From Dehalococcoidia bacterium (GTDB taxonomy: Bacteria; Chloroflexota; Dehalococcoidia; Lucifugimonadales; UBA3495): a stretch of DNA of 64,000 nucleotides. The notes beneath the pieces were generated by a model that saw only the letters and a program-made list of their open reading frames with translations, searched no databases and had not been told where the DNA came from. The position numbers were made by a program, and so were the translations under genes. Below are positions 3,647 to 63,697 of this stretch, piece after piece. Location of the stretch: positions 71,508 through 135,507 of the forward strand of contig OZ240220.1 in the NCBI GenBank assembly GCA_965197655.1, given 5' to 3'. How positions within the stretch are numbered: the stretch's first letter is position 1; the number at the start of each line of letters is the position of its first letter.

Positions 3647-4606
3647 GTGCGCAGTATAGATATTCATGCCCATGTAACCCCACAGTCCTTTATCCAGGCA
3701 ATGCGGGAAGGCAAAGAATGGCACGGCCTGGAACCCCGCCCGCTGGATGTTATGCCTCAGTTGATGTGGACGCCGGAGCAGCGTATCCAGGATATGAACT
3801 CCCTGGGTGTGGATGTGCAGGTAGCTTCCACCGGCGCCCAGTTCTATTTCTGTGACCGGGACGCCCAGACCATCGCCGGAATGCACCGGGAGTGTAACGA
3901 TGAGGTGCACCAGATGACCCTGGACTACCCGGAGCGGTTCCGCGGCTTCGCCCAGATTCCGATGCAGGACGTAAACCTGGCAATCGCCGAACTGGACCGC
4001 TCGGTTAACCAACTGGGTATGCTGGGCGCGATGATTGACGATAAGGTCAATGGCAAGACCTTTGACGAACCGGAATTCCTGCCCCTTTGGAAGGCCGCCG
4101 AACAGATGGGCGCCGTTATCTTTATCCATCAGGGCGGCGGTACCCTGGTGCGGCCCCGCTCCAACAATTATCACCTTCCCAACTCGATAGGCAACCTGGT
4201 GGACCGGGCGGTTACTTTTGCCTCTTTCGTAATGGGTGGCGTGATGGACGCCTGCCCAGACCTGAAAATCTGCCTGGCCCACGGCGGCGGCTATGCCTGC
4301 TACGGCGTGGGCCGGATGGACCGCAGTTGGGACGTGGGACGGCTGCCCCAAATCCCGCAGCCGCCCAGCGCCTACCTGAGCCGGTTTTACTATGACTGCC
4401 TGACCCACAGCGAAACGGCCCTGCGGATGCTGATTGACATGGCCGGAATCGACAAGGTGGTGTTCGGCACCGACTGGCCCTTTGACATGGCGATAGACTG
4501 GCCGGTTTCCTGGGTGCTGAGCCTGGAAAGTCTGACCCAGGATGAGAAGGAAGCCATCCTTTGGAAGAACATGGAGAAGTTGTTGGGCGTTTCGAGCGAC
4601 AGCTAA
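3647..4606 (+). CDS. amidohydrolase_2 family metal-dependent decarboxylase/hydratase (ACMSD/LigW-like), paralogue 1
   Basis: 319 aa with GTG start after GGGAGG. N-terminal MRSIDIHAH (HxH metal site), FIHQGG, AHGGGY and C-terminal FGTDWPFD motifs of the PF04909-type fold. Confidence 0.88.
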   Translation: MRSIDIHAHVTPQSFIQAMREGKEWHGLEPRPLDVMPQLMWTPEQRIQDMNSLGVDVQVASTGAQFYFCDRDAQTIAGMHRECNDEVHQMTLDYPERFRGFAQIPMQDVNLAIAELDRSVNQLGMLGAMIDDKVNGKTFDEPEFLPLWKAAEQMGAVIFIHQGGGTLVRPRSNNYHLPNSIGNLVDRAVTFASFVMGGVMDACPDLKICLAHGGGYACYGVGRMDRSWDVGRLPQIPQPPSAYLSRFYYDCLTHSETALRMLIDMAGIDKVVFGTDWPFDMAIDWPVSWVLSLESLTQDEKEAILWKNMEKLLGVSSDS

Positions 4607-4699
4607 TTCCTGGCGTTGCCCTGAGTCCTATATCCAAGTCCTGTAGTAGCCGGCAATTGCCGGCACACCGAAATTGAACTACCCAATCCGGAGGTATAA

Positions 4700-5656
4700 G
4701 TGCGCAGCATAGACATACACGCTCATCTGACGCCCCAGTGTTTCATCCGGGCCATGGGGGAAGGCCGGGAGTGGCACGGTGTCAAGCCCGGGGAAATGCG
4801 CGTCGGCCCCCGCAACTCCTGGACGCCGGAGCAGCGTATCGACGATATGAACTCCCTGGGCGTGGATGTTCACGTGGTCTCCACCTTTAGCTTTTACTAC
4901 TACTACGACCGGGACGCCCAGGTCATTTCCGCCATGCACCGGGAGTGCAACGACGAAGTGAATCAGATGACCGTGGACTACCCCGACCGTTTCAAGGGCA
5001 TGGCGATTATTCCGATGCAGGATGTAAACCTGGCTATCGCCGAACTGGACCGGTGTGTCAACGGAATGGGCTTCGTCGGCGCCATGATTGACGACCACGT
5101 TAACGGCAATACCTACGACGACCCGGAGTTTTTGCCCTTGTGGAAGGCGGCGGAAGAGATGGGCGCGGTGATGCTGGTGCACCAGCAGGGCGGCCAAACC
5201 CTGGTGCGCGACCGTAACCACCGCTATCACCTGCACAACACCATCGGCAACCTGGTGGACCGGGCGGTTACTTTTGCCTCCTTCGTCTTTGGTGGCGTGA
5301 TGGACGCCTGCCCCGACCTGAAAGTCTGTCTGTGTCACGGCGGGGGCTACACCTGCTTCGGCGCCGGGCGGATGGACCGGGGCTGGCAGGTGCGCTCCGA
5401 GGCCCGGGTAAACATCAGCAAGCCGCCCAGCGCCTACCTGAACAAGTTCTACTATGATTGCCTGACCCACAGCGAACCGGCCCTGCGAATGCTGATTGAT
5501 ACCGTTGGCATAGACCAGGTGATTTTCGGCACCGACTGGCCGGCCGATATGGCGATTGACTGGCCCGTGTCCTGGATATTGGGCCTGGAAAGCCTGACTA
5601 TGGGGGAAAAGGAAGCTATCCTCTACAAGAATATGGAGCGGCTGCTGGGCATCTAA
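4700..5656 (+). CDS. amidohydrolase_2 family protein, paralogue 2
   Basis: 318 aa. MRSIDIHAH, VHQQGG, CHGGGY and FGTDWPAD motifs. GTG start after CGGAGG. Confidence 0.88.
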   Translation: MRSIDIHAHLTPQCFIRAMGEGREWHGVKPGEMRVGPRNSWTPEQRIDDMNSLGVDVHVVSTFSFYYYYDRDAQVISAMHRECNDEVNQMTVDYPDRFKGMAIIPMQDVNLAIAELDRCVNGMGFVGAMIDDHVNGNTYDDPEFLPLWKAAEEMGAVMLVHQQGGQTLVRDRNHRYHLHNTIGNLVDRAVTFASFVFGGVMDACPDLKVCLCHGGGYTCFGAGRMDRGWQVRSEARVNISKPPSAYLNKFYYDCLTHSEPALRMLIDTVGIDQVIFGTDWPADMAIDWPVSWILGLESLTMGEKEAILYKNMERLLGI

Positions 5657-5804
5657 TAGGACGATTGCAAAGTCCCTTCGTGGTGAGCCGTTCGACAAGC
5701 TCACGAGAGCCTTGTGGAACTATCTAAGGCTGTAACGGTGACCCCTCGACAAGCTCAGGTCGAACGGAGGAGTAAGTGGTTTGGCGACTTTGCAATTGTC
5801 TTGA
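5657..5804. mobile_element. MITE type 2 (TGCAAAGTC-terminus family), copy 1
   Basis: Imperfect terminal inverted repeats TAGGACGATTGCAAAGTC / GACTTTGCAATTGTCTTGA. It is flanked by GGCATCTA at 5648-5655 and 5805-5812. The interior matches the copies at 29681 and 62619 (GGTGAGC..TCGAA, CTCGACAAGCTCAGG). Confidence 0.75.
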
Positions 5805-5980
5805 GGCATCTAGGCAGGAACGACGGTTGCGCCGGCAACTTTCCCGGGTACTCTGCCAAAAGGGTTTGTATTTTGGAGGAATGGCCGCGGCGCCCCGGCT
5901 GAAAAATCCGGTGAGGCTACAACCGGTGGGGGAACAACCTGGATATATCTGCCGGCCGCAGCGGTATTTGGAGACTCAAA

Positions 5981-6712
5981 ATGACGGCCAAGCTCGCCTA
6001 CAATTACCTGTCCGAAATCGATTACGCAAGCCTGGAATACGATCCTGACGTACCGGAGCCGCTGCCTGACGCTATGTATCAGTCCCCCTTATTGGTAGAA
6101 CTACTTCACATATTGGCGGCGCGCTATGCCGGCAGCGGACGCAGCCCGGACAACTTTCTGGGCAGCAATACCATTCTCTGCTACGACCCGGCCAACCTAA
6201 ACCGGCGGGTGTCCCCCGACTGCTATATGGCTCTTGGGGTTGACGTGCGTGCAATCCGCCGCCGCAAGCTCTACCTGCCTTGGGAAGTAGGGAAGTCCCC
6301 GGACTTCGTACTTGAAGTAGGGTCGGAAAGCACCGGACGGGAGGACGTGGGCCGGAAACGGGAAATCTACGCCCTGCTGGGAGTGCCGGAGTATTGGCGA
6401 TTAGACATCACCGGCGGCGATTTCTACGGGGAGCCGCTGGTTGGGGAACAACTGGTTGACGGCCAGTACCAGAGGTTCCCCTTAACCACTGAACCCGACG
6501 GCATATTGAAGTCCTACAGTCCAACCCTGGACTTGTATATCTGCTGGCATGACGAGTGGTTCTACTTCTACGACCCGGCAAGCGGTAGTTACATCAGAAA
6601 CTGGGCGGAGGCGGAAGCGGCTTTGCGGGATGCGCACGAATCCCGGCAAAGAGCCGAAGCGAGAATACGTCAACTGGAAGAAGAACTGCGGCGGCGCCGT
6701 GAGGAGAACTGA
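5981..6712 (+). CDS. Uma2 (DUF820) family PD-(D/E)XK endonuclease
   Basis: 243 aa. SPDFVLEVGSEST...GRKREIYALLGVPEYWRLD is the signature core of the Uma2 family. The C-terminus is a coiled coil (EAEAALRDAHESRQRAEARIRQLEEELRRRR). Confidence 0.8.
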   Translation: MTAKLAYNYLSEIDYASLEYDPDVPEPLPDAMYQSPLLVELLHILAARYAGSGRSPDNFLGSNTILCYDPANLNRRVSPDCYMALGVDVRAIRRRKLYLPWEVGKSPDFVLEVGSESTGREDVGRKREIYALLGVPEYWRLDITGGDFYGEPLVGEQLVDGQYQRFPLTTEPDGILKSYSPTLDLYICWHDEWFYFYDPASGSYIRNWAEAEAALRDAHESRQRAEARIRQLEEELRRRREEN

Positions 6713-6838
6713 AGCATTTATTGCCGGCAACCCTGAAAAGATGACGCCGTGAGGTGGGGTTGTTATGGGGTTGTTCGAAAGTCTTTCTTGCCTGTGTGCC
6801 CCAAATTTCTGAATGTTGAAAATCAAGAAAGGATGCCA

Positions 6839-7784
6839 ATGCGAAGCATAGACATTCACGCTCATTCAACACCTCAATGTTTCCAACGGACGGTGCTGGC
6901 CGGCAATGACTGGCACGGTATGACCTCCGCCGACGGTGAATTGTTCAATCCTCGCAACGCCTGGACGCCGGAGCAGCGCATCGCCGACATGGACTCCTTG
7001 GGGGTGGACATCCAGGTGGTTTCCACCAATGCCGGGTTTTACCAGTACGACGAGGACCCGGCGGTTACGACGGCCATCGCCAGGGACTGCAACGACGAAA
7101 TCTACCAGATGACCCTGGACTATCCCGACCGACTGGCCGGCCTGGCCAATATACCGATGCAGGACGCCCACGCTGCCATCGCCGAACTGGACCGGGCGAT
7201 TAACCAACTTGGCTTCAAAGGGGCGATGATTGGTGACCAGGTGAACGGCAAGACCTTTGACGAACCGGAGTTCCTGCCCATCTGGCAAGCGGCGGAGCAG
7301 ATGGGCGCGCTAATTTTTATCCACCAGGGCGGCCAGACCATTGGCTCCGAGCGGCAGCCCCGTTATCACGTCCGCAACACTATCGGCAACCTGGCCGACC
7401 GGGTGGTCACCTTTGCCGCCTTTACCTTTGGCGGGGTGATGGACAAGTGCCCCGACCTGAAGGTCTGTCTGGCCCACGGCGGCGGCTACGCCTGTTTCGG
7501 CATTGGCCGGATGGACCGGGGCTGGCAGGTGCGTTCCGAGGCCCGGGTGAACATTAACCAACCGCCCAGCAACTACCTCGACAAGTTCTACTACGATTGC
7601 CTGACCCACAGCGAGCCGGCCTTGCGGATGCTCATAGACTCCGTGGGCATTGACCGGGTGGTGCTGGCCGGCCGATATGAAGATAGACTGGCCGGTGTCC
7701 TGGGTCATGGGCCTGGAAAGTCTGACCCTGGACGAAAAAGAAGCTATCCTCTGGAAGAACCTGGAGAATATGCTGGGGCTTTAA
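6839..7784 (+). pseudogene. amidohydrolase_2 paralogue 3, disrupted by an 11-bp deletion/frameshift
   Basis: Starts MRSIDIHAH at ATG 6839 (track start 6749 is upstream read-through). After codon 275 (ends 7663) the frame departs from the paralogues. From 7665 the +1 frame reads WPADMKIDWPVSWVMGLESLTLDEKEAILWKNLENMLGL with stop TAA 7782-7784. TTCGGCACCGA (FGTD), present in paralogues 1, 2 and 4, is missing. Confidence 0.8.
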
Positions 7785-7838
7785 CCCCCTGGCGCATTTA
7801 CCGATAATAGTAATTACCAATATAGGAGCAGTTAATAA

Positions 7839-8801
7839 ATGAGGTCTATTGACATCCACGCACACATCAGCCCCGAAGCCTACATTCGCGCGGTGGAAGC
7901 CGGCGAGGAGTGGTACGGCATAAGCGGCCTGTCCCACGAATTCCACCGGATGGTCCCCCGTACTATGTGGACGCCGGAACAGCGTCTTGACGACATGGAT
8001 TCCCTGGGCGTGGACGTTCACGTCCTTTCCACCAACGCCGTTTTTTACTGCTATGACCGGGACGCCGCCACCGTCGCCGCAATGGACCGGGAATGCAACG
8101 ACTATGTGTCCCAACTGACCAAAGACCACCCGGACCGCTTTGCCGGGCTGGCCAACCTGCCGATGCAGGACGTTGGCGCTGCCGCCGCCGAGTTGGAGCG
8201 GGCCATGACCCAGTTGGGGCTGAAAGGGGCGATGATTGACGACCAGGTCAACGGCAAGACCTACGACGACCCGGAGTTTTATCCGGTGTGGGAAGTGGCC
8301 GAGCAGACCGGCGCGGTCATCCTGATTCACCAGAGCCTGGAAACCGTGGTCAGCCCTCGGCTGAACCGCTACCACCTGCCTAATACCATCGGCAATTTGG
8401 CCGACCGGGCGATTACCTTTGCCTCCTTTGTTTTCGGCGGGGTGATGGACAAGTACCCCGACTTGCGGATTTGCCTGGCCCACGGCGGCGGCTATACCTG
8501 CTTCGGAGCCGGACGGATGGACCGGGGTTGGCAGGTACGCTCTGAGGCGCGGGTGAACATCAACCGCCCGCCGAGTTCCTACCTGAATCGTTTTTACTAT
8601 GACTGTCTGACCCACAGTGAGCCGGCTTTGCGAATGCTCATTGATTCAGTGGGCGTGGATAAGGTGCTGTTCGGCACCGACTGGCCCTTCGATATGGCGA
8701 TTGACTGGCCGGTGGCCTGGGTGCTGGGCCTGGAAAGCCTAACCCAAGAGGAGAAAGAAGCCATCCTGGGGAAGAACCTGGAGTCTCTGCTAGGTATCTA
8801 G
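7839..8801 (+). CDS. amidohydrolase_2 family protein, paralogue 4
   Basis: 320 aa. MRSIDIHAH, IHQS, AHGGGY and FGTDWPFD motifs. AGGAG lies 10 nt upstream of the ATG. Confidence 0.88.
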   Translation: MRSIDIHAHISPEAYIRAVEAGEEWYGISGLSHEFHRMVPRTMWTPEQRLDDMDSLGVDVHVLSTNAVFYCYDRDAATVAAMDRECNDYVSQLTKDHPDRFAGLANLPMQDVGAAAAELERAMTQLGLKGAMIDDQVNGKTYDDPEFYPVWEVAEQTGAVILIHQSLETVVSPRLNRYHLPNTIGNLADRAITFASFVFGGVMDKYPDLRICLAHGGGYTCFGAGRMDRGWQVRSEARVNINRPPSSYLNRFYYDCLTHSEPALRMLIDSVGVDKVLFGTDWPFDMAIDWPVAWVLGLESLTQEEKEAILGKNLESLLGI

Positions 8802-8833
8802 TAGGCAGGAAGGCCCGTCCCCCCGACCTGTAT

Positions 8834-8862
8834 CGTCATTCCGGCGAAAGCCGGAATCCAGG
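8834..8862. repeat. hairpin unit CGTCATTCCGGCGAAAGCCGGAATCCAGG (left arm of the GIY-YIG cassette)
   Basis: Internal hairpin ATTCCGGC-GAAA-GCCGGAAT. It is a near-perfect inverted copy of 9174-9202. Confidence 0.8.
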
Positions 8863-8873
8863 GGCTTCCGATT

Positions 8874-9134
8874 ATGAAACAACCTTGCGTTTACATTCTC
8901 GCCAATAAGCGAAACGGCACCCTTTACATAGGGGTAACCTCCAACCTTGTCCAGCGCGTCTGGCAGCATAAGAATGACTTTGTACCAGGATTCAGCCGGC
9001 GTTACGGTACGCACGCCCTAGTCTGGTATGAAAGCCATGAAAGGATGGAGAACGCTATTGTCCGGGAAAAACGGCTCAAGGACTGGCGCCGGGCCTGGAA
9101 ACTGGAGTTGATTGAGAAAGAAAACCCGCAGTGA
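8874..9134 (+). CDS. small GIY-YIG nuclease family protein (UPF0213/YhbQ-like)
   Basis: 86 aa. CVYILANKRNGTLYIGVTSNLVQRVWQHK plus REKRLKDW match the GIY-YIG motif blocks. Confidence 0.85.
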   Translation: MKQPCVYILANKRNGTLYIGVTSNLVQRVWQHKNDFVPGFSRRYGTHALVWYESHERMENAIVREKRLKDWRRAWKLELIEKENPQ

Positions 9135-9173
9135 CGCGACTTGTATCCGGAACTTGCTTAAGGAAACAGCCTT

Positions 9174-9202
9174 CTGGATTCCGGCTTCCGCCGGAATGAC
9201 GG
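9174..9202. repeat. hairpin unit CTGGATTCCGGCTTCCGCCGGAATGACGG (right arm of the GIY-YIG cassette)
   Basis: The reverse complement matches 8834-8862 at about 27 of 29 positions. Confidence 0.8.
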
Positions 9203-9278
9203 TAAAGAGGATTGTGTCTAATGTAATTGGCCTGGGATGACAATGAAAAGCCCTTGCTAACCAATATAGGAGATGAGA

Positions 9279-10274
9279 ATGCGCAGTATAGATATCCACG
9301 CCCATATTGCCCCGGCAGTGGCGGCTAACCTGTCCGAAGGGCAGGAGTGGCACGGTTTCACCCGTCAAGAGGCCGGCGGCCGCCAATTTCTGATCCGGGG
9401 TTCCAAGCGCCAATGGCTGCACCCCAAGTATTTGCTGACGCCGGAACAGCGCGTCGCTGAAATGGATTCCCTGGGGGTGGACGTTCATGTTCTTACCACT
9501 TGGGTCGGTATGTATAACTATGACCTGCCTGACGAGGTGGGCGCCGCTGCCTGCCGCGACTGCAACGACCATGTGGCAGAGCTAACCCGCAGCCATCCCC
9601 AGCGGTTTGCCGGCTTGGCTACCCTGCCGATGCAGGATGTCAACGCCGCCATCGCTGAGTTGGACCGGGCGATGAGCCAACTGGGCCTGAAGGGAGCGCA
9701 AATTAACGACCAGGTAAATGGCAAGACCCTGGACGCCCCGGATTTCCTTCCTTTTTGGCAGTCGGTAGAAGAGATGGGCGCTCTGATTTTCTTCCACCAG
9801 CAGGGGGACGACACGATAGTCGCGCCCCGGGATACCAAGGGCTACGCCATTGACAACTCTATCGGCAACCTGGCCGACCGGGCGGTGACTTTCGCCACCC
9901 TGGTATTCAGCGGGGTGCTGGACCGGTTCCCCGACTTGAAGGTGTGCTTGGCTCACGGCGGCGGGTTTGCCTGTTTCGGCGCCGGCCGGATGGACCGGGG
10001 CTGGCAAGTGCGCTCCGAGGCCCGCGCTCACGGCGCCGGGCTGCCGAGCAGCTACCTGAACAAGGTCTATTACGACTGCCTGACCCACAGCGAGGCGGTA
10101 CTGCGCTATATGATTGATTCCGCCGGCATAGACCGCATCTTTCTGGGCAGCGACTGGCCTTATGATATGGGCATCGACTCCCCGGTCGAATGGGTCAACA
10201 GCCTGGAGAGTTTAACCCAGGATGAAAAGGAAGCCATCCTGTGGAAGAACCTGGAGCGGGTGCTGGGCATTTAG
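9279..10274 (+). CDS. amidohydrolase_2 family protein, paralogue 5
   Basis: MRSIDIHAH, FHQQGD, AHGGGF and LGSDWPYD motifs. ATG 9279 is preferred because AGGAG (9268-9272) directly abuts the track ATG at 9273. It has the longest variable insertion after the HxH motif. Confidence 0.87.
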   Translation: MRSIDIHAHIAPAVAANLSEGQEWHGFTRQEAGGRQFLIRGSKRQWLHPKYLLTPEQRVAEMDSLGVDVHVLTTWVGMYNYDLPDEVGAAACRDCNDHVAELTRSHPQRFAGLATLPMQDVNAAIAELDRAMSQLGLKGAQINDQVNGKTLDAPDFLPFWQSVEEMGALIFFHQQGDDTIVAPRDTKGYAIDNSIGNLADRAVTFATLVFSGVLDRFPDLKVCLAHGGGFACFGAGRMDRGWQVRSEARAHGAGLPSSYLNKVYYDCLTHSEAVLRYMIDSAGIDRIFLGSDWPYDMGIDSPVEWVNSLESLTQDEKEAILWKNLERVLGI

Positions 10275-21276: not shown

Positions 21277-21318
21277 CGCTGACGGGGGTATTTCCAAGGT
21301 GTGTTGGCTTAACCGCGA

Positions 21319-21346
21319 TGTAGGGACGGGTTTCAAACCTGCCCCC
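21319..21346. repeat. short hairpin repeat (GGGCGGGTTTCAAACCCGCCC family)
   Basis: GTAGGGACGGGTTTCAAACCTGCCCCCA. Related copies lie at 23453-23466/23657-23672, 24816-24843 and 56709-56732. Confidence 0.7.
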
Positions 21347-21392: not shown

Positions 21393-21434
21393 CATCCCGC
21401 AACCCTGTTCAGAATCGAAACCCCCTCTTGTCTC

Positions 21435-21570
21435 ACAGGGCTATCGCACTAGGATTGAAAGCTATCCGTCGTACCTCCGAAAGCAGGAACCTAAAATGTT
21501 GCGGGCAGAGATTCCTGCTTTCGCAGGAACGACGGGAAAGGGGAATCTGCCATCACGTGCGATAGCCCTG
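21435..21570. mobile_element. MITE type 1 (twin GGAAC-hairpin core), archetype copy
   Basis: TIRs CAGGGCTATCGCA / TGCGATAGCCCTG. The core is two inverted hairpin units (CGTCGTaCCTCCGAAAGCAGGAACC ... GATTCCTGCTTTCGCAGGAACGACG). It is flanked by TCTTGTCT at 21426-21433 and 21571-21578. Confidence 0.85.
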
Positions 21571-21669
21571 TCTTGTCTTAAAGACACGCCTGATTAGCGG
21601 CGCCCCTTTGTGTTATTATTGGTCTGTTGGGCGGCGCTGCCCGGCAGACCAACTCTTTTGCCCTGACGA

Positions 21670-23450: not shown

Positions 23451-23672
23451 TGGGCGGGTTTCAAAGCATCTGTTCCAACTAATTGGTCATTAGAAACTAA
23501 TGAATCGTCCTACAAGCGTCTTGCTCGTCGGGTGACCCTTATCCGTCGTTCCTGCGCAGGCAGGAACCTAAAACCTTGAGGCCAGAGGTTCCTGCCTGCG
23601 CAGGAACGACGGATAACCTGCTTCCCCATTGAGCAGTCAATTAGTTGGAACCAATGGTTTCAAACCCGCCCC
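23451..23672. repeat. composite palindromic element with a type-1 hairpin core and different, about 36-nt outer arms
   Basis: Outer arm TGGGCGGGTTTCAAAGCATCTGTTCCAACTAATTGG pairs with CAATTAGTTGGAACCAATGGTTTCAAACCCGCCCC. The core CCGTCGTTCCTGCGCAGGCAGGAACC...GGTTCCTGCCTGCGCAGGAACGACGG is at 23541-23612. Confidence 0.7.
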
Positions 23673-24766: not shown

Positions 24767-24815
24767 TTAATACGTGGCCGGGAAAGTTACCGGGTTATCT
24801 TATCTGAACGAATTG

Positions 24816-24888
24816 GTAGGGGCGGGTTTGAAACCCGCCCTGGGTCAAAGGCGACGAGGTTCCTGCCTGCGCAGGAACGACGGGTAGC
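24816..24888. repeat. GGGCGGGTTTGAAACCCGCCC hairpin plus a solo type-1 hairpin unit
   Basis: GTAGGGGCGGGTTTGAAACCCGCCCTGG followed by GGTTCCTGCCTGCGCAGGAACGACGG. Confidence 0.7.
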
Positions 24889-29448: not shown

Positions 29449-29535
29449 TTATTGTCTCCGGTGCTGTGTGGGTTACTGCGTTGGCTCCATTGTAACGTGA
29501 TTGGGGATAGCCCTCAAGCTGTTTGCCCTCACCCC

Positions 29536-29671
29536 CAGGGCAATCGCATCAAACGAAAGGACGGAGCACTGTCGTTCCTGCGGAGGCAGGAACCTCGGTT
29601 CTCAAGGTTTCAGGTTCCTGCCTCCGCAGGAACGACGGCTAGTGCCTCTTATGGTTCATGCGATAGCCCTG
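29536..29671. mobile_element. MITE type 1 copy
   Basis: TIRs CAGGGCAATCGCA / TGCGATAGCCCTG and a twin hairpin core. A perfect 9-bp CCTCACCCC lies on both sides (29527-29535 and 29672-29680). Confidence 0.88.
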
Positions 29672-29680
29672 CCTCACCCC

Positions 29681-29824
29681 TAGGGCTTGTGCAAAGTCCA
29701 CGGCAATAGCAAAATCCACTCATGGTGAGCTTGTCGAACCACGCTCTCCTATCCGGCGGTTTGTCCTTCGACTGGCTCAGGATGAGCGGATCGGCCAACT
29801 CGGGCGACTTTGCACCGGCCCGGC
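29681..29824. mobile_element. MITE type 2 copy
   Basis: Termini TAGGGCTTGTGCAAAGTC / GACTTTGCACCGGCCCGGC. The interior has CATGGTGAGCTTGTCGAACCA and CCTTCGACTGGCTCAGGATGAGCGG. A perfect 9-bp CCTCACCCC lies on both sides (29672-29680 and 29825-29833). Confidence 0.85.
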
Positions 29825-29901
29825 CCTCACCCCCGGCCCCTCTCCCCCAGGGAGAGGGGTGAAACTGCTCCCTCTCCTTGGGGAGAGGGCCGGGGTGAGG
29901 G
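29825..29901. repeat. GGGTGAGGG/GGAGAGGGG palindromic element, copy 1 (left arm interrupted by the two MITEs)
   Basis: CCTCACCCCCGGCCCCTCTCCCCCAGGGAGAGGGGTGAAACTGCTCCCTCTCCTTGGGGAGAGGGCCGGGGTGAGGGG. The start of the left arm is displaced to about 29525-29535. Confidence 0.8.
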
Positions 29902-30052
29902 GTCTGCCCTACGGCAATGACGGGTGGCGAACCAGGGCAGCCACAAGGGTTGCCCCTACGCCGGGAGGGACGTTATACTAGCGCAAACCCCTCCTTTGCA
30001 GGTCAGCCAGCCGTCGGCCTCTGGCCGGCGGTATTATCTTGTTAAGGGATAG

Positions 30053-34951: not shown

Positions 34952-35086
34952 CAGGGCTATCTCATTTGGATTGCGGGCTATCCGTCGTTCCGGTGCAAGC
35001 AGGAACCTCTGTCAGCAACGTTTTGGGTTCCTGCCTCCGCCGGAATGACGGGAAAAGGGCCTTTAGAGTCAACTGCGATTGCCCTG
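34952..35086. mobile_element. MITE type 1 copy with hybrid hairpin units
   Basis: TIRs CAGGGCTATCTCA / TGCGATTGCCCTG. The core units mix the GGAAC type and the CCGGAATGACGG type. No flanking duplication is recognisable. Confidence 0.7.
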
Positions 35087-36183: not shown

Positions 36184-36187
36184 GTCA

Positions 36188-36268
36188 GCCCTCACCCCGG
36201 CCCTCTCCCCAAAGGAGAGGGAGCATTATCACCCCTCTCCCCCTGGGAGAGGGGCCGGGGGTGAGGGT
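36188..36268. repeat. GGGTGAGGG/GGAGAGGGG palindromic element, copy 2 (inverted orientation)
   Basis: GCCCTCACCCCGGCCCTCTCCCCAAAGGAGAGGGAGCATTATCACCCCTCTCCCCCTGGGAGAGGGGCCGGGGGTGAGGGT. Confidence 0.8.
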
Positions 36269-36299
36269 ATCCCAAGCAATTTGTAGAGGTAGCATTAGA

Positions 36300-37526: not shown

Positions 37527-37546
37527 CCCCGCCCGCCCGTTAGTCC

Positions 37547-37680
37547 CAGGTCTATCGCATTTGGATTGCAGTCTATCCGTCGTTCCTGCGGAGGCAGGAA
37601 CCTAAAACCTTGAGAACAGAGGTTCCTGCCTTCGCAGGAACGACGCGACGAGGTCGTTTGCCCTCAAGTGCAATTGCCCG
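37547..37680. mobile_element. MITE type 1 copy
   Basis: CAGGTCTATCGCA ... TGCAATTGCCCG termini and a perfect twin hairpin core (CGTCGTTCCTGCGGAGGCAGGAACC / GGTTCCTGCCTTCGCAGGAACGACG). It begins 20 nt after the lysC stop. Confidence 0.75.
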
Positions 37681-37700
37681 CCGTTCCGCACGGAGGCTCC

Positions 37701-41837: not shown

Positions 41838-42157
41838 CAGGGCAAACTCCCTATTCACGTCGTTCCTGCGCAGGCAGGAACCTAAGGATACTCTGAATAA
41901 GTCATTGAACGCTAGCGCCTTCACCCGTCGTTCCTGCGAAAGCAGGAACCTCTGTACGTAACGTTTTAGGTTCCTGCCTGCGCAGGAACGACGGATAAGT
42001 GTAAACATCACGAGTCACGGACTTATTCAGAGGTTTCCTAAAACCCTGCAAACAGAGGTTCCTGCCTGCGCGGGAACGACGGATGGCTTGCAAACCAATT
42101 GGGTTCCTGCCTGCGCAGGAACGACGGATGGCCGGCAAACCAAATGCGATAGCCCTG
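41838..42157. mobile_element. 320-bp composite/nested cluster of type-1 MITE modules
   Basis: Outer termini are CAGGGCAA... and ...TGCGATAGCCCTG. Six hairpin units lie inside in mixed orientation (one inverted pair plus four solo units). Flanks are TGTGAGTTA (41829-41837) and AATGAGTTA (42158-42166), a 7/9 match. Confidence 0.7.
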
Positions 42158-46117: not shown

Positions 46118-46234
46118 AACACAAGCTATCCGTCGTTCCTGCGAAGGCAGGAACCTCTGTCCGCAACGTTTTAAGTTCTTGCTTGCGCAGGAACGACGGG
46201 AAAAGGGAGTCTGTTGTCACGTGCAATTGCTTTG
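46118..46234. mobile_element. MITE type 1 copy, left end truncated/diverged
   Basis: Twin hairpin core (CGTCGTTCCTGCGAAGGCAGGAACC / AGTTCTTGCTTGCGCAGGAACGACG) and right terminus TGCAATTGCTTTG. It fills the whole citE-like/folB spacer. Confidence 0.65.
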
Positions 46235-50401: not shown

Positions 50402-50570
50402 AGCGGCACCTCAAAAGTCTGCGTTTGGTTACCGAAATCTGGGCGGTGGCGGACAGATTAGCTGACTGTATTATACAACAGGCGGTTTTGGGTACAACGC
50501 GGAATGGCCCCCAACTTCAGAGGACTTGGTAGGGCGGTTGAGGATACGAGCGGCCGTCTCCCGGATTACA

Positions 50571-50650
50571 CCCCTCATCCCGGCTCTCTGCCCAAAGGAG
50601 AGGGAGCAGTTTCACCCCTCGCCCACCGGGCGAGGTATCGGGGGTGAGGG
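50571..50650. repeat. GGGTGAGGG/GGAGAGGGG palindromic element, copy 3 (diverged)
   Basis: CCCCTCATCCCGGCTCTCTGCCCAAAGGAGAGGGAGCAGTTTCACCCCTCGCCCACCGGGCGAGGTATCGGGGGTGAGGGG. Confidence 0.75.
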
Positions 50651-50773
50651 GATTGCGCCAGAACAGGTCGGAACCCGGTACAGCAGCGCCCGCTTCCGTG
50701 CTACAATAGGCGGCACAATTATCGTGCCACCGGCGCAAGCCGGGTTGCAGATTTACCAGGGGGCAGCCGGTTT

Positions 50774-54097: not shown

Positions 54098-54230
54098 TAG
54101 GGATATAGCAAAAATCTGAATACACTTTTGCCGTCGTTCCTGCGAAGGCAGGAACCTCTGTTCTTGAGGATTCAGGTTCCTGCCTTCGCAGGAACGACGA
54201 ACAGCTTATAGTCCAAAAGCGATTATTCTG
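54098..54230. mobile_element. MITE type 1 copy (degenerate termini)
   Basis: TAGGGATATAGCA ... GCGATTATTCTG termini and a perfect twin hairpin core. No flanking duplication is recognisable. Confidence 0.65.
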
Positions 54231-56674: not shown

Positions 56675-56732
56675 GGGCAATCTCCAAGTGCGTTGGTATA
56701 GCCGTACTGTAGCGGCGGGTTTCAAACCCACC

Positions 56733-56866
56733 CCAGGGCTATCGCGTTTGGATTGCAGGCTAGCCGTCGTTCCTGCGCAGGCAGGAACCTAAAACCTTGA
56801 GAACAGAGGTTCCTGCCTGCGCAGGAACGACGGAAATATGACCGTGCGTCTAATGCAATGACTCTG
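56733..56866. mobile_element. MITE type 1 copy
   Basis: Starts CCAGGGCTATCGCG with a perfect twin hairpin core and a degenerate right terminus. A perfect 9-bp AAACCCACC lies on both sides (56724-56732 and 56867-56875). Confidence 0.85.
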
Positions 56867-58401: not shown

Positions 58402-58536
58402 GTAACTGTTCAGTGTCGAAGTGTCCGTCGTTCCTGCGCAGGCAGGAACCTCGAATTGCAGGTAGCGAGGTTCCTGCCTGCGCAGGAACGACGGGCTTTC
58501 TTACCCTGGGGAATCGCCTCAACTCTGAACTGTTAC
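58402..58536. mobile_element. MITE type 1 core with alternative termini
   Basis: Termini GTAACTGTTCAG / CTGAACTGTTAC around a perfect twin hairpin core. A perfect 8-bp CCTTTTAG lies on both sides (58394-58401 and 58537-58544). Confidence 0.8.
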
Positions 58537-62618: not shown

Positions 62619-62761
62619 CAGGGCTATCACAAAGTCCCTGCCAACTACAAAGCCCGCTCATGGTGAGCTTGTCGAATCATACTCCCTTACCAGGTGGCGC
62701 ATCCTTCGACAGGCTCAGGACGAGCGGGCAGAACACTCCCACTACTTTGTGCGAAGCCCTG
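62619..62761. mobile_element. MITE type 2 copy
   Basis: Termini CAGGGCTATCACAAAGTC / ACTTTGTGCGAAGCCCTG. The interior has CATGGTGAGCTTGTCGAATCA and CCTTCGACAGGCTCAGGACGAGCGG. Flanks are GTTTGCCTTG and GTTTGCCCCG (8/10 match). Confidence 0.8.
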
Positions 62762-62796
62762 GTTTGCCCCGGGAACACTCCGGTTTCCCCAGCCTC

Positions 62797-63465: not shown

Positions 63466-63586
63466 ATTGATTAACACTCCTGGTTGAGGTTGATAAGTCG
63501 TTTATGCGTCGGGGCAGCCGTATGACGTTACGTCTGCGGCGCCAAGCAGCTGCCCGCATTATAAGGCTTTGGCGGGATAGACGCAG

Positions 63587-63668
63587 GCCCTCACCCCCGG
63601 CCCCTCTCCCACAGGGAGAGGGGTGAAACTGCTCCCTCTCCTTTGGGGAGAGGGCCGGGGTGAGGGGT
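63587..63668. repeat. GGGTGAGGG/GGAGAGGGG palindromic element, copy 4
   Basis: GCCCTCACCCCCGGCCCCTCTCCCACAGGGAGAGGGGTGAAACTGCTCCCTCTCCTTTGGGGAGAGGGCCGGGGTGAGGGG, nearly identical to copy 1. Confidence 0.8.
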
Positions 63669-63697
63669 TGCCCTGGATGAAATTCAAGGCCGGGAAT

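Follow-up and report, generated by a model that had tools for sequence, protein, structure and literature searches.

A type-1 MITE with ISAs1-type ends in a Dehalococcoidia genome and its hairpin dimer, a cargo that appears to travel with several MITE families

Results

A multi-copy element with inverted repeats and a twin-hairpin core

The window analyzed here is a stretch of 64,000 nucleotides (positions 71508-135507 of contig C1) from an uncultured Dehalococcoidia bacterium, the metagenome-assembled genome of which consists of a single contig of 4,135,141 bp with a G+C content of 59.5% (G000). A spacer at 21.4 kb of the window contains a 135-bp element (21436-21570) with perfect 13-nt terminal inverted repeats (TIRs), CAGGGCTATCGCA and TGCGATAGCCCTG. 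They enclose a core with the layout CGTCGTTCCTGC-N4-GCAGGAACC, an 18-nt spacer, and then the reverse complement. The element belongs to a non-coding, dispersed, multi-copy family of 133-136 bp, which is called type 1 in the following. The evidence is firm that type 1 is a transposed MITE (miniature inverted-repeat transposable element). Very probably, it is a MITE of about 135 bp that was moved by an ISAs1-family transposase, and its core is a dimer of CGTC/Ssn hairpins that was spread as cargo of MITEs driven by DDE transposases.

The end motif CAGGGCTATCGCA, with at most two mismatches, had 13 matches in the window compared to 1.6 expected, and the 68-nt twin-hairpin core occurred 11 times. 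With a profile of the core 532 loci were found in the whole genome. Full twin hairpins were present at 422 of them, and about 233 of these were bounded by type-1 ends (CAGGGCWATCGCA inverted repeats). This verified an earlier reading of the window from its sequence only, which had proposed an abundant MITE family with 13-nt TIRs around two inverted hairpins. Genome-wide, 365 + 379 matches to the end motif (again with up to two mismatches) were counted, versus 34 + 33 in a reversed-genome control. The spacing of paired ends had its main peak at 130-139 bp, with lesser classes at 150-159 and 205-209 bp. The end motif was over-represented, with 525 matches in G000, 218 in the relative G003 and 154 in the relative G021 versus 1-9 in the controls. 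Because such an excess was found in many relatives, ISAs1-type MITEs with various interiors are, judged by their end motifs, widespread in the bacterial family of G000. The type-1 element was predicted to fold into one long hairpin, both as RNA (-76.9 kcal/mol, z = -9.7) and as single-stranded DNA (z = -7.4).

Evidence for transposition

The 10-bp flanks of the 179 two-ended type-1 cores were identical at all ten positions in 27 cases, at nine in 30 and at eight in 26, compared to 0.0, 0.0 and 0.2 expected. At least eight of the ten positions were thus identical in 83 of the 179 copies (0.2 expected), and ten more had a perfect 9-mer. The genome-wide check that had been proposed together with the sequence-only reading therefore showed that the flank identity is not due to chance. 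Among 188 end-paired elements of 90-400 bp the flanks matched at 10/10 positions in 39, at 9/10 in 37 and at 8/10 in 26, and a shuffled pairing of the flanks gave 0.0, 0.0 and 0.2. The target-site duplication of type 1 is 10 bp long, and 9 bp in a minority of copies. The duplications had been recognized before, but their length had been given as 8-9 bp. An example is the 8-bp repeat TCTTGTCT at 21.4 kb, which is in fact the 10-bp pair TCTTGTCTCA/TCTTGTCTTA, from which "CA" had been left out. Locus-specific repeats that abut the ends were found again at 21436, 29536, 33015, 56734 and 58402, but no clean ones exist at 34952, 37547 and 54098. The identity of glmS and the location of its stop codon inside a duplication were confirmed.

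A type-1 element and a type-2 element are neighbors at 29527-29833, with three copies of CCTCACCCC between and around them. Deletion in silico of both elements and of two of the three copies restores a palindromic repeat that is intact at 63586-63674, which represents a paralogous empty site. In metagenome contigs of the runs X5 and X18, which stem from different studies and have flanks of at least 99% identity, 145 bp are skipped at 37531-37679. In run X1, the most assembly-like one, contigs enter the 37.5-kb element from both sides. No further strain polymorphisms were seen at 41-61 kb, where the metagenome contigs break at repeats. In four of four congeners the spacer of the 21.4-kb copy is syntenic, shorter and element-free. 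The earlier proposal to find empty orthologous sites could thus be followed in part: a base-precise empty site was not obtained in the four congeners, and as their flanks are only 75-81% identical, it is the absence of the element that can be demonstrated at this site. Taken together, the type-1 element is regarded as a transposed MITE because the duplications are far above chance level, an ISAs1-family insertion sequence (IS, see below) has identical TIRs, and a paralogous empty site, a strain polymorphism and an unoccupied congener site exist. The sequence-only reading had favored transposition over a REP-style process. The former is upheld by these results, but the core itself turned out to be of the repetitive extragenic palindromic (REP) class.

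The partner insertion sequence

A full-length IS with the same TIRs, for which a search had been recommended, is present at positions 3187940-3189155 of the genome. It is 1216 bp long, its type-1 ends are extended to 16 nt (CAGGGCTATCGCATGA), and it is flanked by the 9-bp duplication GGCCTAAGA. Its open reading frame (ORF) contains the domains DDE_Tnp_1_assoc (PF13808, 4.5e-28) and DDE_Tnp_1 (PF01609), which is the ISAs1-family architecture, and is split into three frames, i.e., it is a pseudogene. Elsewhere in G000 the only remnants of ISAs1 transposases are one fragment and one decayed distant copy, and no ISAs1 transposase was found in the window, in agreement with the earlier statement that the window lacks a transposase. 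In G007, which belongs to a different genus of the same family, at least three IS copies have 387-aa open frames that are 83-84% identical to the ORF of G000. An intact copy of 1212 bp ends in CAGGGCTATCGCA/CAGGGCTATCGCG, is flanked by a 10-bp duplication without mismatches (GGCATTGGGG) and has an ORF of 374 aa when counted from the first start codon. The ends CAGGGCTATCGCA(TGA) are common to the type-1 MITEs, the 1216-bp IS of G000 and the 1212-bp copies of G007. ISAs1-family IS have lengths of about 1.2-1.5 kb, CAGGG ends and duplications of 8-10 bp, and the partner IS agrees with this in its domain pair, its length of 1212-1216 bp and its duplications of 9 and 10 bp. The similarity between the MITE and the IS is confined to the 13-16-nt ends, and the interior of the MITE is not a deletion remnant of the IS. 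TIR pairs that are 1.2-2.7 kb apart were considered as further IS copies and were rejected, as they are chance pairs of neighboring MITEs around ordinary genes.

The median identity of type-1 copies to their nearest neighbors is 92.5%, and the highest is 98.5%. The sole full-length partner IS is frameshifted and the copies are diverged, and therefore the copies are considered to be old and the family is probably inactive or barely active in G000.

The same core in unrelated MITE families

The arms beside the 422 cores were clustered, and families were then assigned by end motifs (Table 1). The two ends were A/A in 179 cores, A/- in 54, B/B in 69, C/C in 26 and D/D in 24; 23 cores had mixed ends and 29 had none. 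Hence, a TIR was recognizable on at least one side of 393 of the 422 cores (93%), and the length of the duplication tracked the TIR type. The 29 end-less cores included no clear case of a solo core, and their arms are mostly decayed. Families B and C are young, with nearest-neighbor identities of 98-99%.

Table 1. MITE families of G000 that carry the twin-hairpin core
Family	Length	Ends	Target-site duplication	Matching IS in G000
A (type 1)	133-136 bp	CAGGGCWATCGCA	10 bp, some 9 bp	ISAs1-family, 1216 bp, pseudogene
B	152 bp	GGATACTCTGAATAAGTC	4 bp, YTAR (CTAA, TTAG, CTAG, TTAA), identical in 45/69	IS5-family, 1.2 kb, DUF772 + DDE_Tnp_1, CTAG-bounded
C	135 bp	GTAAC(T/A)GTTCAG	8 bp, perfect in 17/26, 7/8 in 7/26	IS66-family, 1435 bp, zf-IS66 + truncated DDE_Tnp_IS66
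D (always in GGGCGGGTTTCAAACCCGCCC hairpin)	about 190 bp	CTGTTCCAACTAAT	none demonstrated	none found

The association of core and ends was also found in other genomes. Among the congeners, the hairpin is confined to G002 (149 units; none in G001, G003 and G004), and ten of ten sampled cores of this genome reside in family-B (IS5-type) elements. In G075 (locus L057) an ISAs1-type element carries CGTC hairpins. A second, paralogous hairpin, CGTCATTCCGGC-N4-GCCGGAATCCAG, has 148 units in G000, including 52 head-to-head dimers of 95-99 nt. Dimers of this second type (ATTCCGGC) have IS66-type ends in 13 cases, with 8-bp duplications, and ISAs1-type ends in 12 cases, with 10-bp duplications. Since ISAs1-type ends also enclose the type-2 interior, and since the core occurs within several end types, ends and cargo combine modularly: one cargo is found with different ends, and one end type with different cargos. 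The spacer lineage is specific to each MITE family, which indicates that each family made one founding capture that was followed by MITE-driven amplification.

Type-2 elements were observed in the window at 29681-29824, 62619-62765 and 5657-5804. They have related CAGGGC/TAGGGC ends, and their interior is the palindrome GTGAGCTTGTCGAA...TTCGACAGGCTCAG.

Identity of the hairpin

The hairpin unit has 25 nt, CGTC-GTTCCTGC-loop-GCAGGAAC-C, and two units stand head-to-head in each core. CGTC-tagged REPs of the family CGTC-1 have 8-bp stems, 4-nt loops and CCA tails, occur mostly as head-to-head dimers and correspond to the dRS3 repeats of Neisseria. They are known from five phyla, not including the Chloroflexi/Chloroflexota, and "apparently lack a dedicated transposase" (Di Nocera et al., 2013, PMC3733652). 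The hairpin of G000 agrees with this definition in its CGTC tag, stem length (8 bp), loop length (4 nt), CCA-like tail (ATTCCGGC type, CCAG; GTTCCTGC type, CCT/CCA) and head-to-head dimers. More recently, the oriented motif was renamed NTS, with the consensus CGTCATTCCCGCGMAVGCGGGAATCYRG, and was generalized to Ssn-related motifs (Chenal et al., 2025, PMC11893778). To judge from these sequence features, the twin core is a head-to-head dimer of CGTC-tagged REPs, or Ssn-related motifs, and is of the REP class.

The best matches to the hairpin in a plasmid collection, which included two chromosomes of Neisseria gonorrhoeae filed as plasmids, were repeats of Neisseria, with 91% identity over 33-35 nt and 17-20 places in each record. 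One of these places consists of CGTCATTCCCGCGAAAGCGGGAATCCAG, a spacer and an inverted copy. A generalized motif, CGTCRTTCCNGC-N4-GCNGGAAYC, was present in 32 of 121 sampled Dehalococcoidia genomes, and the control gave 0 everywhere. At its variable stem position all four base pairs were seen, and the positions were mostly complementary. No Rfam family matched the core; only sub-threshold hits to long-hairpin miRNA models were obtained. CRISPR-like hairpin arrays were considered and rejected, as none were found. IS110-type targeting, as for the dRS3 of Neisseria, was likewise rejected: G000 has two IS110 copies and G002 has none, and no hairpins are nearby.

Two side observations concern the arrangement of CGTC hairpins in other genomes. 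Among the matches listed for contig C1 of G089, the minus strand carries nearly all units before about 470 kb and the plus strand all those beyond about 530 kb, a polarity that might correspond to the replication arms. At G143:C1:3329969-3331298 and G124:C1:68-659, CGTC hairpins are repeated in tandem with a period of 142-145 bp, which is reminiscent of the NIME arrays of Neisseria.

ssnA-like genes flanked by hairpins

The gene ssnA encodes a single-domain GIY-YIG protein of 94 aa and is often flanked by the motif. The protein is a site-specific nuclease for single-stranded DNA that cuts near the motif (PMC11893778). In the window, an ORF at 8874-9134 encodes a protein of 86 aa (Pfam GIY-YIG, 3.1e-16) that is 63% identical to the single homologue of N. 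gonorrhoeae; in the second gonorrhoeae record, about 115 bp separate the copy of the homologue from an NTS-type match. The window gene is bracketed by inverted ATTCCGGC/CGTCATTCCGGC hairpins, which is the NTS-ssnA-NTS layout known in Neisseria. A second ssnA-like gene at 4062728-4062982 of the genome (locus L086, C1:4062450-4063300) is 60% identical and lies between two complete, directly oriented 68-nt twin cores of the GTTCCTGC type. Each of the two paralogues is thus flanked by its own hairpin variant.

The hairpin-ssnA-hairpin layout is also present in G002 and G075, and the homologue in G002 has an open frame and is 85% identical. Within the genus, hairpins and ssnA are both found in G000 and G002, and neither is found in G001, G003 and G004. 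Among 53 Dehalococcoidia genomes the co-occurrence of hairpin and ssnA was 21/28 versus 8/25 (odds ratio 6.4, Fisher p = 0.002).

Sequence behavior of the core

In one old subfamily the stems are conserved to 95-99%, compared to 45-75% for the arms. In the young families the arms are conserved to 90-99%, and the variable parts are the 4-nt loops and the 18-nt spacer. This spacer was found in either orientation with respect to the arms, which are asymmetric. In family C the spacer flips and the loops stay in place, and one haplotype of family B has the entire core inverted. It was further observed that the tetraloops GAAA, GCAG, GCCG and GGAA are reshuffled among copies of families B and C (e.g., 58402-58536), the arms of which are 99% identical. 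The reshuffling of spacer and loops suggests that the inverted hairpins are a site of recurrent inversion or template switching.

Features of the window

The features of the window are summarized in Table 2. The copy list of the sequence-only reading holds for the type-1 elements at 21436, 29536, 33015, 34952, 37547, 54098 and 56734, but the element at 58402 had to be moved to family C. Of the elements listed as truncated or composite, 46118 is a truncated copy and 41838 a nested composite, as proposed, while 23451 belongs to family D.

Table 2. Hairpin-containing elements and associated features in the window
Feature	Position	Strand	Remarks
Hairpin-ssnA-hairpin locus	8834..9201	+	Hairpin CGTCATTCCGGCGAAAGCCGGAATCCAG at 8834-8861; GIY-YIG ORF at 8874-9134; inverted hairpin at 9174-9201
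Left target-site duplication, TCTTGTCTCA	21426..21435		9/10 identical to 21571-21580
Type-1 MITE, 135 bp	21436..21570		TIRs at 21436-21448 and 21558-21570; core at 21467-21534
Right target-site duplication, TCTTGTCTTA	21571..21580		10 bp
Family D element, common core	23451..23672		Ends CTGTTCCAACTAAT; inside a GGGCGGGTTTCAAACCCGCCC hairpin
Type-1 MITE	29536..29671		9-bp duplication CCTCACCCC, 9/9; tandem with type-2 MITE 29681-29824, common target inside palindromic repeat
Type-1 MITE adjoining the glmS stop codon	33015..33148		Duplication 8/9; right TIR decayed
Type-1 MITE	34952..35086		One mismatch per TIR; duplication not recognizable
Type-1 MITE, present/absent among near-identical natural strains	37547..37680		No clean duplication
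Composite	41838..42157		IS5-type (family B) element and extra hairpins nested in type-1 ends; core at genome position 113433 has family-B arms
Type-1 copy, truncated at 5' end	46118..46234		Left TIR absent
Old type-1 copy	54098..54230		TIRs decayed (3 and 5 mismatches), core intact, no clean duplication
Type-1 MITE within a GGCGGGTTTCAAACCC hairpin repeat	56734..56866		Duplication AAACCCACCC/T, 9/10
Family C MITE, common core	58402..58536 (genome 129909-130043)		IS66-type ends GTAACTGTTCAG; 8-bp duplication CCTTTTAG

Several other repeats were noticed. The small hairpin repeat GGGCGGGTTTCAAACCCGCCC is present at 21286-21345, 24782-24841 and 56675-56734 and on both sides of the element at 23451-23672, and a congener, G003, has it as well. 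Family D appears to insert preferentially or solely into this repeat, which was also the target of one type-1 copy. A family of 85-nt nested palindromes, CCCTCACCCC-GGCCCCTCTCCC...GGGAGAGGGGCCGGGGTGAGGG, has members at 29821-29910, 36186-36275, 50569-50653 and 63585-63674, and one copy was the target of two MITE insertions. In the region 3754-10274, a unit of about 1 kb is repeated in tandem as five paralogues that are 63-82% identical (repeat families D1-D3, D6 and D8). They seem to represent consecutive amidohydrolase-like genes, and MITEs and ssnA have inserted between some of them.

Discussion

A model for the spread of the hairpin dimer

The TIR identity, the duplications and an insertion polymorphism were observed directly, and the chemistry of transposition is deduced from the IS family. 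By this analogy, an ISAs1-family DDE transposase supplied in trans would bind and cleave the 13-16-nt TIRs (CAGGGCWATCGCA...), and staggered cuts in the target would be filled in to yield the duplication of 10 bp, or sometimes 9 bp. The hairpin dimer, which is unrelated to the IS, would sit as cargo between the MITE ends. Because the dimers (GTTCCTGC and ATTCCGGC) are found within ISAs1-, IS5- and IS66-type ends and a fourth end type, the hairpin repeats in the lineage of G000 would have multiplied mainly by hitch-hiking in MITEs that are mobilized by DDE transposases.

That the stems are conserved while the arms decay suggests that the hairpin as such is under constraint. The most plausible reason would be recognition of the stems by a cognate SsnA-like nuclease, or another use of the extruded hairpin. 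The hairpin may help the MITE, it may serve the host, or its conservation may simply reflect the repair of a palindrome. A more far-reaching variant is that the dimer is not passive and makes the MITE successful in hosts of the SsnA type, so that DDE transposase, MITE and GIY-YIG nuclease would form one system. Nicking of the hairpin extruded on single-stranded DNA might then promote copying, recombination or retention. This variant is rather doubtful, yet if true, it would explain why unrelated MITEs recruited two paralogous dimer types (GTTCCTGC with ISAs1, IS5 and IS66, ATTCCGGC with ISAs1 and IS66, plus the fourth end type). It would also explain why stems are conserved amid arm decay and loops and spacers are reshuffled in 99% identical copies, and why CGTC/NTS repeats, which have no own transposase, reach hundreds of copies in many phyla.

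Alternative explanations

A pair of inverted REP-like hairpins around a short spacer that folds into one long hairpin is also the architecture of REPINs, as outlined in PMC3116915 and PMC3337134. The twin hairpin might thus be a REP doublet moved by a REP-associated tyrosine transposase (RAYT) similar to those of IS200/IS605, and the outer CAGGGC repeats would be incidental. However, the domain Y1_Tnp (PF01797) was without a match in G000 and in 9 of 12 hairpin-rich Dehalococcoidia, the tag is CGTC and not GTAG, a TIR borders 393 of the 422 cores on at least one side with a duplication length that depends on the TIR type, and convincing solo cores are missing. A RAYT/REPIN identity is largely refuted by the missing Y1_Tnp domain and is highly improbable. 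It also seems quite unlikely that the dimer is itself the mobile unit, i.e., a hairpin-ssnA-hairpin element that lost its gene and was moved by the GIY-YIG nuclease into existing MITEs independently, with MITE transposition explaining only part of the spread. The architecture of Ssn loci has been described as IS-like (PMC11893778), which would fit such a unit. Furthermore, hairpin-ssnA-hairpin loci are present in G000, G002 and G075, the ATTCCGGC dimer resembles such a locus minus the gene, and the palindrome, with its sharp boundaries, is all that the MITE families have in common. But no solo dimers were found, the family-specific spacer lineages imply a single capture per MITE family, and no single-domain GIY-YIG nuclease is known to integrate DNA.

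Another alternative is that the host keeps the elements as RNA hairpins downstream of genes, as terminators or 3'-end stabilizers. The very stable RNA fold, the location of 378 of the 422 cores between genes (based on rough gene calls) and the use of REPs and MITEs for this purpose in other bacteria (PMC3733652) would be in accordance with it. The intergenic cores are, however, distributed over tandem, divergent and convergent spacers in numbers (188/106/84) that follow from the spacer length (about 200/102/75). No genome-wide preference for 3'-ends was found and divergent promoter regions are not shunned, the hairpin is not followed by a U-tract, and it has no Rfam match. A terminator role was therefore rejected, a function as RNA hairpin in general is improbable, and the closeness to stop codons, which had been put forward as a feature of the element, is nothing peculiar to it, as copies occur in all spacer classes in proportion to their length.

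The interpretation of type 1 as an ISAs1-dependent MITE with a hairpin cargo under constraint thus remains preferred, but several findings weigh against it. A recognizable duplication is absent from about 40% of the copies. The 145 bp missing at 37531-37682 lie between 7-nt direct repeats, and the left flank CCGTTAGTCC and right flank CCGTTCCGCA of the 37.5-kb element agree at only 6/10 positions without a clean duplication, so that this may be an imprecise event or a secondary deletion and not a textbook empty site. An intact ISAs1 transposase was not found in G000, and current mobility is therefore unproven. The conservation of the stems could be due to self-templated repair or gene conversion of the palindrome instead of recognition by a protein. 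The ssnA-like gene at 8874-9134 has a TGA where its relatives continue for nine more codons, and the second gene has an in-frame TAA at about codon 27; these premature stops make a present-day interaction of nuclease and hairpin in this strain doubtful. Finally, G089 and G154 are rich in hairpins and have no ssnA homologue.

Significance and comparison with known systems

As a MITE alone the type-1 element is ordinary. What appears to be new is that hairpin dimers travel as cargo of several MITEs of DDE transposases. A text search of the literature yielded no description of an ISAs1-derived MITE in Dehalococcoidia, the literature on ISAs1 and MITEs being judged by title, and no paper that joins MITEs and Dehalococcoidia. 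The results offer a concrete and testable route for the build-up of CGTC/NTS copies, namely as cargo of MITEs that match three DDE transposase families. They extend the CGTC/NTS repeats and ssnA to the Chloroflexota (Dehalococcoidia) and provide natural substrates for testing the action of Ssn nucleases on transposon hairpins.

With IS-derived MITEs such as Correia/NEMIS, RUP and Nezha, type 1 shares the small size, the lack of coding capacity, TIRs identical to those of an IS, a duplication of the length typical for that IS, hundreds of intergenic copies, nesting and polymorphism. It differs from them in that its interior is a REP-class hairpin dimer that is also found with the ends of other IS families. 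The likeness to REPIN-RAYT systems consists of the inverted REP doublet with a spacer, the fold into a single long hairpin and a cognate gene flanked by its own repeat variant. In contrast to these systems, the cores of G000 have the CGTC tag, TIRs and duplications, and no tyrosine transposase. The motif of G000 fits the NTS consensus CGTCATTCCCGCGMAVGCGGGAATCYRG except for compensatory changes in the stem, and motif-rich genomes tend to have the ssnA gene. The paper on NTS and SsnA (PMC11893778) does not mention MITEs and leaves the build-up of copies open, and the genes described there differ from the two genes of G000 with their premature stops; a role in transformation is not inferable for the uncultured organism. 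The cores of G000 also resemble CGTC-1 and the dRS3 and NIME repeats of Neisseria, which have the same tag, stem and loop, a short CC(A) tail, a mostly dimeric organization and no RAYT, and in Neisseria the same layout of hairpin, spacer and inverted hairpin. In contrast to these, 93% of the units in G000 reside in TIR-bounded elements with duplications, and the main stem variant is GTTCCTGC instead of ATTCCCGC.

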